This document shows, in pieces, positions 9,307-57,876 of a stretch of DNA of 64,000 nt (within the stretch, counting starts at the first letter, position 1; each line of letters begins with the position of its first letter). Below the pieces are notes generated by a model. It had not been told where the DNA came from, did not search any database, and saw only the letters and a program-made list of their open reading frames with translations. The stretch lies in the IMG/VR virus record IMGVR_UViG_3300027730_000005; one strand, given 5' to 3'. The translations under genes were made by a program, and so were the position numbers. Source of the stretch: a virus. Taxonomy: Duplodnaviria; Caudoviricetes.

Positions 9307-9555
9307 TTATCGTTTTATTTGCCACAACAAATATTCAAATTTGCTTATGTAGTATACATCATCAATTGGGTCGCCGGGTCCTGAGATAATTCTAGATCCT
9401 TTGTAACACCAAGTAAGCCATAGTCGATCTCTAGAAAAGTAACAATTTCTTGGCCATAAACAAAAATTCAAACGCCAGTTGCGTATTTGATTTAGGCCCC
9501 ATTCTTGATATTGAAACTCTTGACTCACCGGGTGATCAAGCATTAAGTACCCCAC
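9307..9555 (-). CDS. Hypothetical protein
   Basis: ORF track. Confidence 0.55.
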   Translation of the reverse strand: MGYLMLDHPVSQEFQYQEWGLNQIRNWRLNFCLWPRNCYFSRDRLWLTWCYKGSRIISGPGDPIDDVYYISKFEYLLWQIKR

Positions 9556-10403
9556 TCGTTCTTGAACAATGGTACTTGCAATCGGTCACTGTAACGTAAA
9601 CCTGCGTTCATGGCCATAATAGCCACAGCCTTGTTATTCAATGAGTAAACACTTTCTACACCGCCCACTGGCATCAAGTACACATGTCCTTTGAATCCTG
9701 CAGAACGGAATGCAGCAATAGCACACTCAGCATCAGCAAAGTCTTGTTCGGTAGCAATAACAAATTTCAAATATGTTGTACCAACAGATTCATACTCACA
9801 CACAATTTCTGGGCAGATAGCATCTTCCCACTTCTCACCACTACAAGGAAGTTTAGCACTAACTGAGAATGTGATCTCACGAGATGTAAATGGAGGATTT
9901 GTACCCCACTGTTTTAGAAACTCTTTAAACTCCGGAGAGAGCTTTTGAGTACCATTTGTTTCAAAAGTAATTTCTTTCAGCTTCAACATCTTTTCGTGAT
10001 TCAACAAGTCTGGATAAGCACGTTGCCAACCTAGCAATGGCTCACCACCGGTGATAACAAGATGCTCATCCTTCCATTCCCCGTGCGGAATGATTTCCAC
10101 AATACGATCTACAATGGCTTCGCTGGTTAGCATGGGACTCAACTCTTTAAAGTCTGGATGCCAACTAGCATAACTGTCACATCCTGTGCTAACCAGCGGA
10201 AGTTCATTATACTCTTTAAATGGATGCATGGCATGCATGACTGCAATTTCTTCTGTTTCCTTGCTTAGTTTGCCTCGTGGCATACCAAATCCTGCACATT
10301 TGAAGTTGCATCCAAACACACGCAAGAACACACTGGGCACCCCCATATAACGCCCCTCACCTTGGATACTATAAAACAGTTCAGCTACTTTAAGTTTACT
10401 CAT
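9543..10403 (-). CDS. queE: 7-carboxy-7-deazaguanine synthase (radical SAM)
   Basis: ELFYSIQGEG…VFLRVFGCNFKC, CDS, LVITGGEPLL, ETNGT, RLQVPL. Confidence 0.9.
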   Translation of the reverse strand: MSKLKVAELFYSIQGEGRYMGVPSVFLRVFGCNFKCAGFGMPRGKLSKETEEIAVMHAMHPFKEYNELPLVSTGCDSYASWHPDFKELSPMLTSEAIVDRIVEIIPHGEWKDEHLVITGGEPLLGWQRAYPDLLNHEKMLKLKEITFETNGTQKLSPEFKEFLKQWGTNPPFTSREITFSVSAKLPCSGEKWEDAICPEIVCEYESVGTTYLKFVIATEQDFADAECAIAAFRSAGFKGHVYLMPVGGVESVYSLNNKAVAIMAMNAGLRYSDRLQVPLFKNEWGT

Positions 10404-14917: not shown

Positions 14918-15394
14918 TTAAAACTCGTTGTCTTCACGATGACCTTGACGGCCAGCCATGTTTGAATCAGTCTCACGCACTTCTACCTTGCAACACCAAA
15001 CTCGTGCAGCTTCTTCACTACCGCAGTTGGGCAAGAAGATTGTGTTAACGTATTCGTACAAGAAGTCAGCAATACCTTCGCACCCGGTCTTTTCTACTTC
15101 TGTGATCTTGGCCAGTTTGAGTCTGCCCAATTCCAGCAAGTGTTCACGCATGGGATCATCTTGTGCAACCAGCAAAGTGTGATCAAACCAATCTTCTAGA
15201 TTTGCCTTGAGTGGTTTTAGGCCGCCAAAGTCTGTACACCAGTTACGTGCATCCAGGGTATCACATTCAAATTCAAAGTGAAAGCTCATTGCGTAACCGT
15301 GTATGAGATTGCAGTGACTCTGAGCACGCCACTGGCGATACGCTACAGGTCCAATTTGCTTGTAAGTTTTTGTTGAAAAGTATTTTTTTGCCAT
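14918..15394 (-). CDS. queD: 6-carboxy-5,6,7,8-tetrahydropterin synthase
   Basis: CNLIHGY, DFGGLK, FDHTLL, GCEGIA, VEVRET. Confidence 0.85.
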   Translation of the reverse strand: MAKKYFSTKTYKQIGPVAYRQWRAQSHCNLIHGYAMSFHFEFECDTLDARNWCTDFGGLKPLKANLEDWFDHTLLVAQDDPMREHLLELGRLKLAKITEVEKTGCEGIADFLYEYVNTIFLPNCGSEEAARVWCCKVEVRETDSNMAGRQGHREDNEF

Positions 15395-15402
15395 GATTTT
15401 CT

Positions 15403-15464
15403 CCTATGTTGATTATAGCATAGGCAGCAGAGTTTGTAAAGCGGGAATGACGCCCAAGACCGCT
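15403..15464 (-). ncRNA. Candidate preQ1-I-like riboswitch plus RBS-occluding hairpin upstream of queD
   Basis: AGCGG/CCGCU stem, loop starting U and ending C, UUACAAAC tail, then CCUAUG/CAUAGG hairpin covering the SD. Confidence 0.4.
15412..15440 (-). promoter_or_regulatory. Sigma70-type promoter inside the queD leader
   Basis: TTTACA-17 bp-TATAAT. Confidence 0.6.
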
Positions 15465-15472
15465 ATGAATAT

Positions 15473-15877
15473 TTATACTGGTAGTTGGTAGCCTGTGGCC
15501 TTATAGTCGGCTTGCCCAAATATAACTCCACGTACTCCGCCAATAGGATTAGCAGTGTCGTTCACTCGACGTGGAATCAAATGCACATGTGGATACATTA
15601 CCGTTTGTCCAGCAGCGGGTCCCATATTGATACCAATGTTGAATCCGTCACATTTGCCATCGGCTACCATGTGACGGCCATATCGCATAGCTGATTCCAT
15701 ACAGTCAATGATCACCGCATCAGTGTTGTAGTTAGGCACAAACAGCAAATGACCACGGGTCACTGGATAACGATCTTCAAACACAGTGACGTGAAAATCA
15801 CTTAACTCTTGTACTTTTAGATCCCACGGTGCTACACCGGCAGCATGGGCTTGATCTAATGTTTCGTAATTGATCAT
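15473..15877 (-). CDS. HIT family hydrolase
   Basis: FEDRYPVTRGHLLFVP, GFNIGINMGPAAGQTVMYPHVHLIPR. Confidence 0.85.
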   Translation of the reverse strand: MINYETLDQAHAAGVAPWDLKVQELSDFHVTVFEDRYPVTRGHLLFVPNYNTDAVIIDCMESAMRYGRHMVADGKCDGFNIGINMGPAAGQTVMYPHVHLIPRRVNDTANPIGGVRGVIFGQADYKATGYQLPV

Positions 15878-15979
15878 CTTGGTGCAAATTCCTGTTGTAG
15901 TTTGATACCACTATTTTTACAGCAACCAGTTTTAAGTTTTATCATAAATAAATTATACAGCAATTTTATAGGAAAGTCA

Positions 15980-16648
15980 ATGTTTTTAGATAACAGATAC
16001 ACCAAAGTTTATTACCAAATTATTAATAGAGCATTAACAAGGCCATACAAAAAAGTAAAAAATGATGGGTATCAAAAACATCATATTGTTCCAAAATGTA
16101 TTGGCGGCACCAATTCCACTGATAATCTTGTAATACTTAGTTATAAAGAACATAGAGTGTGCCATTGTTTATTAATCAAAATCCAACTTACAACATCAGC
16201 AGAAATCAAAATGCGACACGCCTATGGATTTTTTAATAAGAGTAGCAGATATAATGGCCCGCGATATAAAAGAGGAAAAGACAATGTATTCTCTACTCCA
16301 GAAATTATCGAACAAGTCCGCTGGCGTATGATTAATAATAATCCTATGAAGGACCCACTTTCTCAACAAAAAAGAGTCGATACCTGGCGAGCAAATAGAG
16401 CCGCGCAAAATTGCATTCCTCGGAGAATACTTAAGGATAAGTTTATCACACCATTGGGTATATTCAAAACTAAAAAAGAAATACAGAAAGTTCTAAACAT
16501 ACCCGAATGGACATTAAATACTATCTACAACGATTTAGATGCCCTTCCTACTCCTGACGGAAGGGGTAGTAAAAAGATCACTCATCTAAATATTGACATA
16601 AGCAAGACCTGGAGAGACAATGGATTTGACTTACTTGCCGTTTCTTGA
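15980..16648 (+). CDS. Free-standing HNH homing endonuclease
   Basis: KHHIVPKCIGG…NLVILSYKEHRVCH; opposite strand; start moved to MFLDNRY. Confidence 0.75.
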   Translation: MFLDNRYTKVYYQIINRALTRPYKKVKNDGYQKHHIVPKCIGGTNSTDNLVILSYKEHRVCHCLLIKIQLTTSAEIKMRHAYGFFNKSSRYNGPRYKRGKDNVFSTPEIIEQVRWRMINNNPMKDPLSQQKRVDTWRANRAAQNCIPRRILKDKFITPLGIFKTKKEIQKVLNIPEWTLNTIYNDLDALPTPDGRGSKKITHLNIDISKTWRDNGFDLLAVS

Positions 16649-17419
16649 CTGAAGTAGGATATTATCAAAGAATTCTTTCTTAGTACCCATGTCAGTGTTA
16701 AATGCACCTTTAAGCACTGTTGTCTGTGTTAAACTACTATGTGCCATTATGCCCCTATTGGTACAACACCCATGTTCCGCTTCAAGGTAGACCCCAACAT
16801 TCTCACTACCAGTGGCCTTCATGATTTCTCTTGCAATGTCGTTACAGAGTTCTTCTTGCAAAGTACCTCGACGGGCACACCACTGTGCAATACGAGTATA
16901 CTTACTGAGACCAATCAGTTTCTCTGCCGCAATAATGCCAATATAAGCAACCCCAGTAACGGGTTGGTGATGATGACTACACATACTACGAAGTTCACTG
17001 CGAACCACGAGCATGCCTTCATAACGGTCTGCTGAATCATTTGGGAACGCTGTTGCGTCTGGTGCTGGTTCATATCGCCCTTCCATTATCTCGTTAAAGT
17101 ACATCTTGGCCAAACGTCTTGCTGTGCCTTTGCTATTGGGATCATTCTCACGATCGATTAGCAAAGTATCTAATACTTGTTCAAATGCTTGTGTTGCTTC
17201 GTTGATCAAATGTTCTTTATCACTATCATGTAGATAGTCACTGATGTTGTCGCCTGCCCAAAATCTCTTACCATCTGCTCGCATACGCTCGCGAATTGCT
17301 GTGCTTAGATACTTGCCTTGATCTACGTCTTGTTTTTTAACATACAAGTTTTTCCCCTCCAACGAAACAAATTCTTCTGATTGTGGGTGTATGATTGGGT
17401 CTGGTTTAAATTTTAACAT
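16631..17419 (-). CDS. folE: GTP cyclohydrolase I
   Basis: SMCSHHHQP, IGLSKYTR, LQEEL, EAEHGCCTNRG. Confidence 0.92.
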   Translation of the reverse strand: MLKFKPDPIIHPQSEEFVSLEGKNLYVKKQDVDQGKYLSTAIRERMRADGKRFWAGDNISDYLHDSDKEHLINEATQAFEQVLDTLLIDRENDPNSKGTARRLAKMYFNEIMEGRYEPAPDATAFPNDSADRYEGMLVVRSELRSMCSHHHQPVTGVAYIGIIAAEKLIGLSKYTRIAQWCARRGTLQEELCNDIAREIMKATGSENVGVYLEAEHGCCTNRGIMAHSSLTQTTVLKGAFNTDMGTKKEFFDNILLQSRNGK

Positions 17420-20634: not shown

Positions 20635-21219
20635 ATGCCTAAGTTAACCAACCCTACCACTAATGATACTTGTTTTTTGTGCGGATGTCAAGCACATTGG
20701 ATAAGTTTCAATTCTAAACAGATGCGATGTGTTGAGAAGATTACTCGATGTATTGGCTTTGTCAAAAAAGCTGAGGCAGCCCGGCAACAAAATATGTCTA
20801 AAGAGTTGCGCAGGAATCATATGAAGCAAATGAGCATTAGTGGTAATAAGCGACTTGCTGAACTTCACACTGATGAGCAATGGCGCCGCAGCAAGGGCAA
20901 TAATATTTCTAAGGCTAAATCCACTATTTCTGTTGAACAACAGTCTGATTGGGGTATTTACGAAAGCATAGTTGATCGTATTACACGAGAAAGTTGGTTG
21001 TATCATAATGATAAAATCAATCCTGAAAACTTACCAAGAGGCCATGAGTATGAGTTGGATCACAAGTATAGTAAACATCAAGGTTTTTTAAATAATGTTC
21101 CGCCAGAAGTAATAGGGCATTACTTAAACTTGCAAATGCTTCCGCGGCACTCTAATCGTAAAAAATACAACAAGTGTTCTATATCCATTGATGAACTGTA
21201 CGAGAGCATCAATATTTAA
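20635..21219 (+). CDS. Putative HNH-type homing endonuclease
   Basis: N-terminal CxxC; C-terminal ELDHKYS…NLQMLPRHSNRKK; opposite strand. Confidence 0.5.
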   Translation: MPKLTNPTTNDTCFLCGCQAHWISFNSKQMRCVEKITRCIGFVKKAEAARQQNMSKELRRNHMKQMSISGNKRLAELHTDEQWRRSKGNNISKAKSTISVEQQSDWGIYESIVDRITRESWLYHNDKINPENLPRGHEYELDHKYSKHQGFLNNVPPEVIGHYLNLQMLPRHSNRKKYNKCSISIDELYESINI

Positions 21220-21661
21220 TTGACTGTGCCGAGTAAGTTAGTTTAAATTTTATTAAACAACCATTCTCGCCATCTTCACTAACTTCAATCCATATTTCTT
21301 TGTCTGGATATTTTGCAGCGATTTGATCGTAAAGATCCTCGGCCATCATTTCACAACTTTTGTAGTCAAGTTGCAAGGTTCCGTCTTGATATAGATTCTC
21401 AAGCCAGCGTTTGAATTGAATGAACTCTATGGCCCTATCTGAATGTTCGACATCAATCCACACCCTGAAATGAAAGATGTGACGGTGAGCAGTAGCAAGA
21501 AACGATACATCATATTCATCTCCAGTGGCCAATGCAGGATCTGTGGCAGCAGCTGGATATTTATGGATGCCTTCTTTGCGGAATGTGACCCAGATCTTGC
21601 GATCTGCACGAGAGCGAACTCGCTCTCGTTGTTCTAGCAATGCTTGTTCGCGTTCGTTCAT
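21209..21661 (-). CDS. QueD-like T-fold protein (DpdL-like candidate)
   Basis: LATAHRHIF replaces QueD CxxxHGH; SCEMMA and IEVSEDGENG match QueD C-terminal motifs. Confidence 0.6.
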   Translation of the reverse strand: MNEREQALLEQRERVRSRADRKIWVTFRKEGIHKYPAAATDPALATGDEYDVSFLATAHRHIFHFRVWIDVEHSDRAIEFIQFKRWLENLYQDGTLQLDYKSCEMMAEDLYDQIAAKYPDKEIWIEVSEDGENGCLIKFKLTYSAQSIKY

Positions 21662-21665
21662 AACA

Positions 21666-22223
21666 TTATTCCAAAGTAAAAAGTTTGTGGAAAGTAGATT
21701 GAGACATAGCCTCAAGTTTCTTCATAGCACCATCTGTAAATCTAAACTGATATGATCTAGGACCGTTGGCCTGTCTCTCAAAAAACCCATAGTAGCCTCC
21801 TAGGATATAATCACTTTGATCACCTTGGATGATTTTCTGTCTAGCTGCTTCGTAACACTTTTCAATTTTTTCTTGTATGTGTAGTATTGAAAAATTATAC
21901 ACTTCTGCTGAGACTATGACTTGATCTTTGGTCTTGACTCGATATTGTCGCTGTAATTTGCCATAGATCACAGATTCTCTGTACGGAGTCAATTTAATAT
22001 CCTCGGGAGTCATCCTACCAACTGTGTGTGCTGAAACAGCATCAAGATCTCTTGATTTGACTTCTGTTTCGATCTCCGGTATATCTGGCCCGGGCGCATT
22101 AGACATAGGATAGCCTTGCTCGCCAAGTTCCTTTTCAATATATCGACCAGCGGCGCCACCAAAATTTGATGGGACCAATTTACCAACCATGTTTGCTTTG
22201 AGTCTAACAACTTTAGCTTTCAT
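21666..22223 (-). CDS. MutH/Sau3AI-like PD-(D/E)XK nuclease
   Basis: GGAAGRYIEKELG…PGPDIPEIETEVKSR parallels the MutH G..G..LE..LG…QDF..GVELK layout. Confidence 0.5.
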   Translation of the reverse strand: MKAKVVRLKANMVGKLVPSNFGGAAGRYIEKELGEQGYPMSNAPGPDIPEIETEVKSRDLDAVSAHTVGRMTPEDIKLTPYRESVIYGKLQRQYRVKTKDQVIVSAEVYNFSILHIQEKIEKCYEAARQKIIQGDQSDYILGGYYGFFERQANGPRSYQFRFTDGAMKKLEAMSQSTFHKLFTLE

Positions 22224-22726
22224 AATGTTTCGTCCTTGGTATATTTAGACCAGTCAGTAAAGTGGTCTCGATTTTGTAGTTCATGTATGCTATGACACCA
22301 AACACCAGGATTGGTAGCAGCAAAGTCCTTGTCGTCTATTTTGAGTGTGGCATTATAGCCTAACAGTTTGATATATGGTAGTTTGACTGAGATCATTGGA
22401 ATAAAATTATGATCTTCAGTTAGGCTAGATTCCAATAATCCTTCCACACACTTGACATCAATATCAAGTGTACACAGGTACCCTTTTTGCAAAAAGTATA
22501 GAATCATATTTTCCCACTGCGACCACTTTACGTAGTCGTTGGTATCAATATTTGGAAAACTTTGATTGGCACCAAAATAGATATGCTCACATCCTTGTAT
22601 ATTGGCGGCAATATCATCTGCTGATTGTACCCCAACTACAAATAATGTCTTTTTACCAAATGCAGGTGTGTGTTCTACTTCAGTTCCATAAAAGAACTTG
22701 ATGTTCTCGTGGCCTTCTCGATTCAT
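22220..22726 (-). CDS. Uncharacterised protein translationally coupled to dpdA
   Basis: 168 aa; ATGA overlap with the dpdA stop. Confidence 0.7.
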   Translation of the reverse strand: MNREGHENIKFFYGTEVEHTPAFGKKTLFVVGVQSADDIAANIQGCEHIYFGANQSFPNIDTNDYVKWSQWENMILYFLQKGYLCTLDIDVKCVEGLLESSLTEDHNFIPMISVKLPYIKLLGYNATLKIDDKDFAATNPGVWCHSIHELQNRDHFTDWSKYTKDETL

Positions 22727-24267
22727 ACTTGATCCTGTTCGAGTTGTTGTAATGCTTCAAAGTTTAACAGATCTTCGGGCTCAGAGTCAACCTCTACCAC
22801 ATCAAATAATGCCGAAAACTGTGTATTGGCATTCTTGGTCTTTTTGCCCTTGAATCCTCGAGTACCAATAATATCCATCCAGTATCGGTCATACTTTTCA
22901 ATAATAGCTTCAGACTCTGCACGATTGGATGTTGCAAATATAGCCTCTACAATATCTGCAAAGTGAGTGTGATCACCATTCTCATGCCACATCATGTAAG
23001 GCCACGACCCTGAATCAAATGTTCTATTGGCACGTTGCACCGCTTCCAAATGCATCCAAACATTGTGCCCCATCAGCAATGCATATGAGAATGAATCCCA
23101 AGATGTCTTGCCTTCTTTGCCAATCTTGTTCAAGTCGCCAGGCTTGTAGATGCACACATCCTTCATAGTCAGCAATCGACTGAGCGGGCTTTCATCAAAG
23201 TGATCCACCAATCCGTCGGCTACCACAGCCGACCCATAAGGTCTAGTGTCTGTGCTGTATTTCTTGTCATCGGCAATGGGACTCATTCTATAGCACCATT
23301 TTTCGTTGTGTGCCAAATCTATATGATGATATACTTGCCCATTAGCAGTGGCCAGGAATGGACTTGCACAATCAAACGAAATAGTAAAATCAGGGTTAAC
23401 ATACTTTCTAACAGCACGTTGAATCACAGTAAGCAATACTGCCCATTCTAGTTTTGATGTACCCAAAAAGTGCATCCAATCATGCTTGCCCTGTTGTAGC
23501 AAGTTATCATGTCGCAATGCCACTAGGCGTTTAAGCACCAAATGTACGTCGCACATGTTCTGACCACCCATACTCCATCCATCAAAATGTGTGGTAGGGT
23601 ACTTGACAGGGTCACAAAAGTCTTTCATTTCCTGATACCATTGTTCAGCACTGGTGTGATTGTCACCTTGCAACACGTTTAAGAACTTGGCACCACCATT
23701 TTCTTTGCCCTTGCGATGAGCCATGAAATATTCATTGTTGAACTTAGTAGCATCTACTGCCTCTTGTAGTGTGGTAATCTGACAGGCTTTGCTTGCTTTC
23801 TTGTCGTGGATCACCCAAGTAGGAATATCCAAGATCATGCCGTAGTCACTCACACTGTCCAACCATGCAAGCACTGCTGAACGTTTTTTCTGTGCTTTGG
23901 CACAACCTGAGTTGGCCTTCCAATCGCCTTCCCACAGTCCTTTGGCAATTTGGAATCCGCCTGAGTCACCAAGTATAAAGCTACCTGGTTCTCTATTGCG
24001 AACCATATCCTCAGACCAGTCTTGTTTGTTGAGATCCAAGTTGGCATGTCCACCTGAATACAAACTCCACCGATACGGAAACAATGCTTTTTGACTGTTA
24101 AGCCAATTCATCATCTCCATATCAGTAAGTCCGGCAGGCATACGTCCAGGATCTACATATGGTTCGTTACGTTGTTTGCCCACGAACGTAGCATAAAATC
24201 CCGAGATGGCTGGAAGGAACACAGCATAGTCGTTCTGCTTGGCTGTGAGATTGTCTTGATTGATCAC
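22723..24267 (-). CDS. dpdA: TGT-fold guanine transglycosylase (phage DpdA-like)
   Basis: GDSGGFQI, MILDIP, LNVLQG, DGWSMGG, HFLGTS, SFDCASP; clustered with folE/queD/queE. Confidence 0.8.
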   Translation of the reverse strand: MINQDNLTAKQNDYAVFLPAISGFYATFVGKQRNEPYVDPGRMPAGLTDMEMMNWLNSQKALFPYRWSLYSGGHANLDLNKQDWSEDMVRNREPGSFILGDSGGFQIAKGLWEGDWKANSGCAKAQKKRSAVLAWLDSVSDYGMILDIPTWVIHDKKASKACQITTLQEAVDATKFNNEYFMAHRKGKENGGAKFLNVLQGDNHTSAEQWYQEMKDFCDPVKYPTTHFDGWSMGGQNMCDVHLVLKRLVALRHDNLLQQGKHDWMHFLGTSKLEWAVLLTVIQRAVRKYVNPDFTISFDCASPFLATANGQVYHHIDLAHNEKWCYRMSPIADDKKYSTDTRPYGSAVVADGLVDHFDESPLSRLLTMKDVCIYKPGDLNKIGKEGKTSWDSFSYALLMGHNVWMHLEAVQRANRTFDSGSWPYMMWHENGDHTHFADIVEAIFATSNRAESEAIIEKYDRYWMDIIGTRGFKGKKTKNANTQFSALFDVVEVDSEPEDLLNFEALQQLEQDQV

Positions 24268-46500: not shown

Positions 46501-46556
46501 TGATGGAATTTTACAGCATCGGCGAGATTAAAGTTGTCAAGATCATGGAAATTCAT
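40536..46556 (-). CDS. 2006-aa polyvalent protein (Pol-beta NTase, zincin, amidoligase, repeats, deaminase, two GNATs)
   Basis: GSNA…SDIDLH; AHEMTH; EFEM/EPDGSL/LEFVSP/TGLH; HAE…LSPC…C; YQGRGIA; RQGVGS. Confidence 0.8.
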   Translation of the reverse strand: MNFHDLDNFNLADAVKFHQRLNPRLWGSDEHLLPDVRDKLLAIASNFQEFLGVDDLNIQDITISGSNAAYSYTRHSDIDLHLVVDMPDDPVYQELFNAKKYQYNAEHDIKIAGVPVELYVQPSDQKHVSQGIYSVKNGDWVQVPQRRRASIDDSCVQHKTADLDARIHSAIKSGNADAVNQLWDKIKTMRQTGLEKNGEFGCENIAFKLLRNMGCIGKLKDAKTAIQDRELSLNRKPAARKKVNYGMRDYWYPGTAYAGQDHPAGTESEQVDESVELDHLKKILHRFYASCVDKLKLENPPRLRLETTPEWSQENGSFGQYEPESNTLILATAGRHVLDILRTMAHEMTHRQQDERNPLPIDAGETGSPWEDQANAMAGRIMRQWAEEQPEMFDGVTLEEASGYIPTKAQARDPRFVMALTRDVRPGAVGKEANKLGLQTDSQGHPALLTAGLNKMLREFKEKDLFEIKMTSTNLRQLAAQTGAQAGMEFEMIVPDVGVDEQEPDWEPDYDQDQRTRSFSDIRDFFHDGDHNGRRAVDDLMEEIQNEYEEWQQEQTAEAWTRDGVDYMRDFVNVNDLFDRDEAMLQARDEIMDANPDLPQESEDFSQLLSARLDELQEQFVLEAFEDQGRVFNDAFEAFAEEQRDEYDEGSFLDDKYQTMSDIESNFDIEWPYYTDANEGNDGDMDIDQVADEFSSYMGKPVNASRNYHGGRREAGTYVVEPDGSLEGDNPGDEGLEFVSPPMPIDEMISDLNKVKAWADKSGCYTNDSTGLHINISVPNYSLDKLDYVKLALLMGDEYVLELFGRSGNNYAKSAIGKIKTMLKRNPDIAPQVMDKMREHMEDIATKAIHTGTTEKYTSINTKTGYIEFRSPGGDWLDSNFSKIEDTLLRFTVALDAAMDPEKYRQEYLKKLYKLLNPNGTKDEYGDMIQEFAKYMVSLQGNSKEVGDKLSKETQQAIKDFRKATFQELEQQNLARNLAKGKTPKGQKYWWDVSRPGYFASIEIVASSKEEAIAKAIEPGNYPDWASARNTLQAKPLRPYQDPKPSLSYSVYDARAGYNRSSITASSQEDAVQKFRQFVSGENNPHDFSLVDRAGTVVARGGDQQQPGPQSAAQPSTGNWGIWMNDMNRFARAPGQSDNNVLRRFPSREAAEQFITQGREQNSRMITDIEVREIEPQQTEQPIWYVSPQGNPGQEIQIRASSELNAIRAAGEARPDIFGNTAGRSHLFRASTVPARSSNAFVSTQNVPREGQPRNLVPTGPGPWEIYRISDNSTVRELSNTSRPEAEQEARLALGMRGEAPELYGVRTRQGNNSDAAQGGIVDVGIPQTLTRPGQGQQTFTGNWLILNPDGQEIHRFSGVGNVQSDANRVAINWMRSNPGRMQAGVTVVPEMGVAASQQQYQYTSTPIPGVEDVELDIPMAQTQWEVYNRSSNQPVFVIQAANQTEAWRRGQEWVATAMQANPEVDASNFSVRLRSQSVSENITVLEQRLRRDLDALGNQKPTGPETPPKMPAGTIKVDVSDTQDWYQLGQDISDLDQADKSHYNQGPPHTVLAFGSEELENMYSHKLKRLGLPIHDLDEPGEEDMDESQEITKLGKLDNVLKKCINMIHRGHETDPEKYGRVAACLIDNKNNHTYAINLPGLNGTRRHAERVAIDQHLKRHGRIGPNAIMVTTLSPCVHDMDERYGESCTDLLADFGIEKCYAGWQDPTQHPTTDYPFNLQVTDNADIFNTCQHIAASFLPQVMANNLNETINPDVFNPAFNDTQIFDGLTYRATGIEINGKEYFQVKVLDDNYQQIGLAKFRPSKNGLVSAVTSLKLEYQGRGIARNIYAYVRMLGNTIVPSRNQLPPGKAMWDAWKKSGDAKHLMKDVAEEEEPIRIKLGNNDAAQAWIERVYAKYPYTMQNNHVMVWGKGDDQQFAMFELVPSFSKRGAVEVKWIQAYPLRQGVGSRAMQELQAMAREDGISLTLFPWDKGQVSQSKLTKFYRGQGFTPTVKGSKSMQWEPK

Positions 46557-46569
46557 GATCTATTTATCG

Positions 46570-48250: not shown

Positions 48251-48262
48251 TATTTATAAATA
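48251..48262. promoter_or_regulatory. Palindrome TATTTATAAATA giving back-to-back T4-like late promoters
   Basis: TATAAATA on both strands between divergent genes. Confidence 0.7.
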
Positions 48263-57711: not shown

Positions 57712-57876
57712 ACAGATATTTATGGCAAGAGACTAGAACCTGTGCGCTTTGATTTTTTCCGCACAGAGAAATACTTATGCCGCAAATCTCTGAAATCTCG
57801 GTACATAGATCTCACACTACAAACACCTAAATATTCGTGCTAAACACAATTAGCAAACACTTTAGGAGAACCACAC

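Follow-up and report, generated by a model that had tools for sequence, protein, structure and literature searches.

A conserved pseudoknot in the queD leader of uncultured lake phages, a candidate translational ON riboswitch

The 78 nucleotides (nt) that separate a HIT-family gene from a queD-like gene (QueD/PTPS family) on the minus strand of an uncultured, T4-like lake phage raise the question of whether this leader carries a regulatory RNA and, if so, how it acts on queD. The locus lies in a 64,000-nt stretch, here called the window, of IMG/VR virus record IMGVR_UViG_3300027730_000005. The window phage has a phrog_262 DNA polymerase, the 20 sequencing-run rows that match the stretch are all lake or freshwater DNA, and no close relative was found among annotated phage records (INPHARED), which yielded two distant PTPS matches only. 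An earlier note had read the leader as a preQ1-I-like riboswitch exerting feedback on queD. The layout that it described is present, i.e., TATAAATA, 5 nt, an AGCGG/CCGCU stem with its tail UUACAAACUCUGC, and a CCUAUG/CAUAGG hairpin that overlaps the Shine-Dalgarno (SD) sequence, and so is the overlapping sigma70-like promoter that it had given as a caveat.

Comparison of related phages makes it almost certain that the queD leader encodes a conserved structured RNA. The element is predicted to be a cis-acting RNA of about 45 nt that matches no Rfam family and folds, on the queD sense strand, into an H-type pseudoknot of two helices, P1 and P2. It very probably controls the translation of queD through competition between P2 and a helix that sequesters the ribosome-binding site. 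The best explanation, which we favor with moderate confidence and in which we infer the switching, the ligand, and the ON direction, is a ligand-stabilized translational ON riboswitch.

The pseudoknot in the queD leader

Searches of IMG/VR with the window QueD, its HIT neighbor, and two divergent QueD proteins as queries returned 320 loci. Approximately 300 phage loci carry the element, and they gave 150 distinct aptamers after 16 false positives had been dropped from the raw script hits; these 150 aptamers are the basis of the counts below unless another sample is named. The extraction script required the CU of loop L1, the final C of L2, and YUCYGC as a search anchor, and it fixed L3 at 13 nt. 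For the bases that it required, independent support comes from the conservation line of a free MAFFT alignment. The MAFFT alignment of all 150 aptamers does not hold P2 in one register because L2 varies between 5 and 7 nt. P2 was therefore counted by script, using three registers and shuffled controls, and was analyzed with the covariation tool on two subsets, one with a short P2, in which the window is included, and one with a long P2. In all, three alignments were compared with 500 shuffles and with slid controls.

P1 consists of 5 bp and is paired in 744 of 750 cells (99.2%). Covariation of this helix across queD leaders, proposed in the earlier note as a check, was borne out, as both sides changed at four of the five pairs (A-U/U-A; G-C/C-G/U-A; C-G/A-U/U-A; G-C/C-G). 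The covariation score for P1 plus one P2 pair was 0.432, compared with 0.074 for the shuffles, none of which scored as high.

P2 comprises 4 to 7 bp of free sequence, its 5′ segment ending directly at L2 and its 3′ segment following L3. The first four pairs are complementary in 545 of 600 cells, with four to five pair types per position; variants include GGCA/UGCC, GGCG/CGCC, GGUG/CACC, GGAA/UUCC, GAUG/CAUC, AUGC/GCAU, and AUGACUU/AAGUCAU. Two near-identical aptamers differ by an exact double change in this helix (GGCG/CGCC in L136, GGUG/CACC in L156). All four pairs are present in 101 of the 150 aptamers, compared with 53 +/- 4 (maximum 66) when the tails were shuffled among aptamers. Covariation amounted to 0.346 in the long-P2 subset (0.143 shuffled) and to 0.292 in the short-P2 subset (0.102 shuffled), values that 0 of 500 shuffles reached in either case, and the slid controls were all far lower on all three alignments. 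G.U cells outnumber A.C cells in the aptamer helices by 57 to 20, and the RNA is therefore the queD-sense strand.

These pairings replace one that had been suggested earlier, between a GGG in the loop and a CUC in the tail. The G-run is not conserved, the CUC belongs to the invariant YUC of L3, and it is GGCG and UGCC that covary instead. An anti-P1 helix of GCGG with CYGC, which appeared in the minimum free energy (MFE) fold, was also rejected, since CYGC is invariant while P1 changes.

In contrast to the variable helices, at least 10 unpaired bases are invariant, several of them among those required by the extraction script. L1 starts with NCU in 150/150 aptamers, its script-required CU being nearly invariant in the free MAFFT alignment, and is of variable length beyond these bases. 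The last five bases of L2 have the consensus UCAUC. A C directly 5′ of the P1 3′ strand is found in 150/150 aptamers, again as a script-required base; in the MAFFT alignment CC is invariant and the next C nearly so. In the window this base is C15445, at the position where the specificity cytidine of preQ1-I sits (PMC10622847). In L3, positions A3, A5, A7, U9, C10, G12, and C13 are 100% conserved, with YUCYGC serving as the script anchor, and the MAFFT alignment likewise shows no variation at these positions. The length of L3 is 13 nt in all parsed aptamers, as fixed by the script, and approximately 10 to 11 nt in a few degenerate variants that were excluded. In the latter (L428, L430, L433-L436, L440), P1 is reduced to about 3 bp (AGG/CCU), and UUCUGC and GGCG/CGCC are retained; in another variant (L056, 2921-2978), two bases are missing from the P1 5′ strand. 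All of them could act as natural mutants.

Table 1. Positions, in the window, of the parts of the queD leader and of genes named in the text
Feature	Position	Strand	Remarks
T4-late-promoter-like octamer	15477-15470	-	TATAAATA; overlaps the TAA stop of the HIT gene (15475-15473); 5 nt 5′ of P1
Spacer		-	5 nt between TATAAATA and P1
P1 5′ strand	15464-15460	-	AGCGG; partner 15444-15440
Loop between the P1 strands	15459-15445	-	15 nt
L1	15459-15455	-	UCUUG; positions 2-3 (C, U) invariant
P2 5′ strand	15454-15451	-	GGCG; partner UGCC 15426-15423, one G.U
L2	15450-15445	-	UCAUUC; ends in invariant C15445 adjoining the P1 3′ strand
P1 3′ strand	15444-15440	-	CCGCU; partner 15464-15460
L3	15439-15427	-	UUACAAACUCUGC; A-rich part, then invariant UCYGC
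P2 3′ strand	15426-15423	-	UGCC; final CC doubles as the start of the sequestor hairpin
Sequestor hairpin	15424-15403	-	CCUAUG (15424-15419), 10-nt loop (15418-15409), CAUAGG (15408-15403)
Shine-Dalgarno sequence	15405-15401	-	AGGAG; 6 nt before AUG (15394-15392); overlapped by the sequestor 3′ arm
Internal sigma70-like promoter	15440-15412	-	TTTACA (15440-15435), 17-nt spacer, TG-extended TATAAT (15417-15412) in the sequestor loop; 11/12 matches
queD-like gene	14918-15394	-	158 amino acids; QueD/PTPS-family T-fold protein
HIT-family gene	15473-15877	-	Pfam HIT, E 9.5e-10; upstream of the leader
FolE	16631-17419		
QueE-like radical SAM enzyme	9543-10403		phrog_2076, E 2.7e-49
Second T-fold protein	21209-21715	-	phrog_17812; LATAHRHIF, i.e., LxxxHRHxF
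514-amino-acid open reading frame	22723-24267	-	no Pfam or PHROG family
248-amino-acid open reading frame	15902-16648	+	between the HIT gene and folE; faint HNH endonuclease matches, E ~0.007

Expression platforms and promoters

Three types of expression platform (A, B, and C) follow the one aptamer, and all of them reuse the P2 3′ strand. In type A (82 distinct, including that of the window), the last two bases of this strand are the first two of the CCUAUG/CAUAGG hairpin over the start of the SD, and at least two of the four SD bases are paired in the MFE fold of 74 of the 82 platforms. In type B (47 leaders with a readable start), the strand, e.g., UGUCAUC, can pair with GAUGGCA, a complementary sequence at the start codon, and pairing with the AUG region is present in the MFE fold of 46 of them. 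Type C leaders have GCC or GUC, then AUUG, which pairs with CAAUGGC, as it does in the MFE fold of 19/19. The sequestor arms are almost invariant in type A. The changes UCUAUG, CCUGUG, and CGUAGG are wobble-compatible on the sense strand only; one further arm variant, CCUAGG, is not a wobble change.

Pseudoknot and SD/AUG helix are thus shown, as predicted pairings, to be mutually exclusive. Since the aptamer loop and the ribosome-binding region are alternative partners of the P2 3′ strand, the ribosome site should become free once the pseudoknot is stable. In the mechanism that we propose, P1 and P2, with the invariant bases of their loops, would form the pseudoknot at the expense of a competing helix, which lies over the first SD bases in the window and over AUG in other phages, and queD would then be translated. 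The stabilizer would most likely be a small molecule, making the element a translational ON riboswitch of an uncatalogued class with preQ1-I topology, and a plausible ligand would be a metabolite that resembles a purine or a pterin and belongs to the route from GTP to 7-deazaguanine.

The wiring therefore suggests a translational ON switch. The feedback (OFF) logic of the earlier note does not fit this arrangement, the P2 3′ strand being shared with the SD/AUG-sequestering helix in all three platform types. With ON control, the ligand is more likely to be a substrate or a signal than an end product. Candidates are dihydroneopterin triphosphate, 7-carboxy-7-deazaguanine (CDG), 7-deazaguanine, preQ0, or a purine from host DNA.

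Sequences ahead of the aptamer point to transcripts that would begin close to it. In the type A flanks (81 distinct), TAAATA is found 3 to 9 nt before P1 in 41, mostly at 5 to 8 nt, and TAAGTA in 18 more. Several type B loci have TTGACA-17-TAnnnT ending 5 to 10 nt before P1, and the usual element in type C is TGTATAAT, at a distance of 7 nt. In the window, TATAAATA is a putative late promoter; a late-like start from this octamer and its 5-nt spacer would presumably fall at about the first base of P1, given the geometry known for T4. The proposal that the stem begins near +1 is thus consistent with the promoter-like elements, which would place P1 there.

Two supporting arguments for the octamer fared less well. 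As a motif TATAAATA is not enriched, occurring three times in 64 kb against 2.6 expected, and ATAAATA occurs 11 times against 13 expected. The assertion that the 5-nt spacing recurs before other ATGs holds in part only: ATAAATA at 46561-46567, 48251-48257, and 57717-57723 (minus strand) lies 4 to 5 nt before the ATG of the genes starting at 46556, 48245, and 57711, respectively, the first of which encodes a 2006-amino-acid protein. With motifs so near to ATGs, late transcripts would be almost leaderless, or else the motif would take part in translation initiation.

Other transcripts may also traverse or bypass the aptamer. The HIT gene has its own sigma70-like promoter (TTGACT-17-TATAAT, 15980-15952, minus strand, 11/12 matches), the scan for terminator-like sites found none between this gene and queD, and read-through of the HIT transcript into the leader is possible. 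P1 itself was rejected as an intrinsic terminator of the HIT gene (5-bp stem, 15-nt loop, no U-tract, absent from the terminator scan). Within the type A sequestor loops, a TAnnnT sequence is preceded by TG in all 33 distinct hairpins, with T1, A2, and T6 fixed and positions 3 to 5 varying (TATAAT, TAAAAT, TACAAT, TATACT, TAAACT, and others). This conservation of the −10 element indicates that the internal promoter is probably real. It does not account for P1, P2, or the invariant spacer.

Distribution, known relatives, and competing explanations

The element is closely tied to queD. Among the first 160 loci, 148 copies have a readable downstream frame, and a QueD homologue follows in 145 of them; in the 160 loci obtained with the divergent QueD proteins as queries, it stands directly 5′ of a QueD-family gene in 156. 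The downstream proteins form four subfamilies with 35 to 100% identity to the window protein, and the RNA core is nearly constant although the QueD proteins drop to 35 to 60% identity. The genes upstream of the element differ between loci, as do those after queD (DAHP-synthase-like, UvdE, QueE-like, YhhQ-like, and sugar enzymes). The window has a single copy, to which model R1 gives 70.7 bits, compared with 11.8 for the runner-up, and there is one copy per genome in 5/5 phage genomes of 300 to 364 kb. A multi-copy promoter-plus-stem-loop cassette (PeSL-like) was rejected, as each window, locus, and genome has one copy.

Some phages have an unrelated queD leader without the element (L009, L012, L014, L016, L013, L078, L080, L437, L438), including phages whose QueD is 90 to 97% identical to that of the window and members of other subfamilies. 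The control must therefore be dispensable or replaced in those lineages. In L027 (2278-2366) and L028, a complete element is followed by a five-codon remnant (MAKKY, stop), and an intact queD without the element lies approximately 640 nt farther on; this arrangement looks like a recombination scar.

When bacterial and archaeal genomes (596 Gb) were searched with a 19-nt core pattern, 120 stretches matched, which is about the chance level, and only two of these were real copies. Both belong to one metagenome-assembled genome, two contigs of which carry T4-type Gp23 capsid genes, and are probably phage contigs binned with it. That assembly is labelled Haliscomenobacter sp. EUL_031, with the copies L192 (ctg1) and L269 (ctg58), and one Gp23 contig is apparently the 183-kb contig of L192; the label is at most a weak hint at a host. 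The element is likely to be phage-specific, although the pattern covers just the commonest P1/L3 variant.

No Rfam family, including preQ1-I, II, and III, matched the whole window at the gathering score. At E<=10, the 301 nt around the element and the variants L019 and L060 gave only chance snoRNA or Mu-gpT-DE-like matches. The preQ1-I model (RF00522) found no match at E<=10 on stretches of 150 to 300 nt from the window leader, L019, and L060, and it scores the element below about 10 bits, compared with a gathering score of 39 bits; in five related genomes its best scores are 15 to 17 bits, sub-threshold and away from the queD leader. Full-text literature searches retrieved no description of a queD-leader motif in phages. 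Few phage riboswitches have been reported, essentially just glutamine riboswitches and a psbA-linked one (PMC9004378).

The comparison with preQ1-I thus upholds the earlier note on the topology, the 5-bp P1, the C at the end of the loop, and the A-rich tail, and not on membership in the family. Like preQ1-I, the element is an H-type pseudoknot of very small size, in which P1 has 5 bp (5 to 6 bp in preQ1-I) and a conserved C, here a putative specificity base, ends the loop beside the P1 3′ strand. The A-rich start of L3 would likewise lie in the P1 minor groove, translation would be controlled via P2, and the gene belongs to the GTP to 7-deazaguanine pathway. The preQ1-I features used in this comparison are those of types I to III, e.g., B. 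subtilis queC, T. tengcongensis, and E. coli yhhQ (PMC10622847). Unlike preQ1-I, the element has a 13-nt L3 with the invariant UCYGC block, an L1 that begins with NCU and has no conserved U beside P1, and a P2 that lies farther 3′ and consists of 4 to 7 bp of free sequence, and it was found on phage contigs only. Its P2 3′ strand competes with a sequestor of the SD or AUG (ON), whereas that of preQ1-I contains the SD (OFF). The element may therefore work like a small pseudoknot riboswitch with a distant kinship to preQ1-I, and membership fails the tests that were run.

The principle has parallels elsewhere. SAM-II, SAM-V, preQ1-II, fluoride, and guanidine-III riboswitches are also compact two-helix pseudoknots in which a ligand-stabilized P2 sets access to the ribosome site, but they have other loop sequences and another gene link, and none of their Rfam models matched. 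In the add adenine riboswitch of Vibrio vulnificus, one strand is common to an aptamer helix and to the helix that hides the SD or AUG, and the ligand frees the ribosome site; this RNA is a three-way junction rather than a pseudoknot and has no sequence relation to the element. Among T4 leaders, a 5′ pseudoknot takes part in the translational control of gene 32 (gp32 autoregulation), and hairpins in gene e and I-TevI hide the ribosome site on long transcripts, from which short transcripts made by an internal promoter escape. These T4 elements are protein-operated or purely temporal and show no sequence similarity to the one described here. Moreover, T4 has late promoters in the internal position, in contrast to the sigma70-like internal promoter and the late-like upstream one of the queD leader.

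As to what operates the pseudoknot, we lean, by a narrow preference, towards a small molecule. Several observations weigh against a ligand-operated switch. The single-sequence MFE of the window leader is at the level of shuffled sequences (z-score −0.21), i.e., no better than chance, and the leader structure was settled only because related phages were compared. Only three of the first four P2 pairs are present in 45 of the 150 aptamers; in one such case, AGCA with UGCC, the strands could also be aligned in a register 3 nt away. The P2 of the window is short, with 4 bp including one G.U, and shares just 2 nt with the sequestor. Its duplex has a calculated energy of about −4 kcal/mol and the sequestor hairpin alone one of −4.5 kcal/mol; given such similar values and so small an overlap, switching would need tertiary or ligand stabilization, and the energetic leverage appears modest. 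The type A sequestor arms show wobble changes without a full compensatory pair. Transcripts from the internal promoter would start in the sequestor 3′ arm and hence lack both aptamer and sequestor. Finally, biosynthetic genes are not usually under the control of an ON switch, and the ligand of such a switch is hard to guess.

Neither the structure nor the competing helix requires a small molecule, and a regulatory pseudoknot that works without a metabolite is the strongest alternative, although we consider it rather unlikely. The pseudoknot might be the operator of a phage or host protein. Alternatively, it might be constitutive and hold the ribosome site open in long transcripts, and temperature, upstream translation, or RNA decay would then shift the balance. 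The T4-like character of the phage, together with the gp32 precedent, is in keeping with a protein operator. In many loci upstream stop codons lie 5 to 10 nt before P1, which terminating ribosomes could melt. Against such explanations, the unpaired bases have remained invariant despite QueD proteins at 35% identity and differing neighbors. Such invariance across diverged phages is less easily reconciled with a phage protein that co-evolves than with a small ligand that does not change or with a universal host factor. The restriction of the element to one gene family, in one copy per genome, also speaks against control without a metabolite.

A divergent but true member of preQ1-I that binds preQ1 or preQ0 and represses queD is improbable. 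Besides the length of P1 (5 bp), the invariant C that precedes its 3′ strand, an L3 that is rich in A at its start, and a regulated gene in the 7-deazaguanine route, such a reading could draw on variants of the form AGAGG...CCCUCUAUAAAAA, which we take to resemble the B. subtilis queC aptamer, and on 3 Vut_1/YhhQ-like genes among the 146 genes scanned downstream of queD. These likenesses are set against the RF00522 results, the UCYGC extension of L3, which is absent from preQ1-I, and the first base of L1, which is U in just 45% of aptamers. The P2 3′ strand acts as an anti-SD or anti-start sequence, not as the SD, which predicts ON rather than OFF control. In addition, five large relatives have no Pfam match to QueC above the cut-off and no match to TGT, and it is therefore unlikely that these phages synthesize preQ0 or preQ1 themselves.

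Lastly, a purely DNA-level element, in which the sigma70-like promoter (TTTACA-17-TGcTATAAT, with T1, A2, and T6 kept in the type A loops) would be governed by a protein bound to the P1 arms as an inverted repeat just upstream of the −35 box, is very improbable and largely refuted by P2, which joins the loop to a segment 20 to 25 nt downstream across the P1 3′ arm in a strongly covarying pseudoknot that neither duplex DNA nor a dimeric operator explains; the excess of G.U over A.C shows that the pairing is strand-specific and takes place in RNA, the aptamer persists in types B and C, which have promoters upstream of P1 instead of this arrangement, and promoters do not require an invariant YUCYGC in their spacer.

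Pathway context and biological meaning

The ligand-stabilized ON riboswitch would act on an atypical enzyme. The queD-like product matches Pfam PTPS (E 2.6e-15) and the QueD-like family phrog_2389 (E 2.7e-40), and it scores 35 bits against NCBIfam QueD, compared with a cut-off of 89. It reads SHCNLIHGY, so that CxxxHGY replaces the QueD signature CxxxHGH, and HGY is retained in all four subfamilies behind the element (HCNLIHGY, HCHLLHGY, HCSLLHGY). The protein may thus not be a canonical 6-carboxytetrahydropterin synthase. A sequence search of the PDB with it gave no match.

queD belongs to a co-oriented block of genes that also encodes FolE, the QueE-like radical SAM enzyme, glycosyltransferases, a B12 radical SAM enzyme, and methyltransferases. 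The LxxxHRHxF of the second T-fold protein (Table 1) is the proposed signature of the CDG decarboxylase DpdL, described for phages that have FolE, QueD, and QueE and lack QueC (PMC10516641). For the 514-amino-acid open reading frame, the nearest named clusters in the ESM Atlas are TGT-like (0.93) and DpdA (0.88), a language-model lead only, which makes its product a candidate for a very divergent DNA transglycosylase. The context is that of a 7-deazaguanine-type DNA-modification cluster that probably stops before preQ0. On the plus strand, the 248-amino-acid open reading frame is possibly a homing endonuclease.

The element precedes the first committed T-fold enzyme of this cluster. Its fullest reading, a new phage-specific class of ON riboswitch that responds to a metabolite from the pterin route or from the one leading from GTP to 7-deazaguanine and that switches on the T-fold enzyme with which phage DNA hypermodification begins, is one that we hold to be evenly balanced. 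Phage riboswitches are rare, and this element is abundant, occurring in hundreds of uncultured freshwater T4-like and jumbo phages. It could provide a compact new sensor part, and the identity of its ligand would help show what the atypical CxxxHGY QueD-like enzyme makes. If ligand binding is true, the element would represent a new riboswitch class with unusual ON logic. Large lake phages would then have their own metabolite-sensing control of an anti-restriction pathway, i.e., the phages themselves would sense metabolites when they deploy anti-restriction DNA chemistry.

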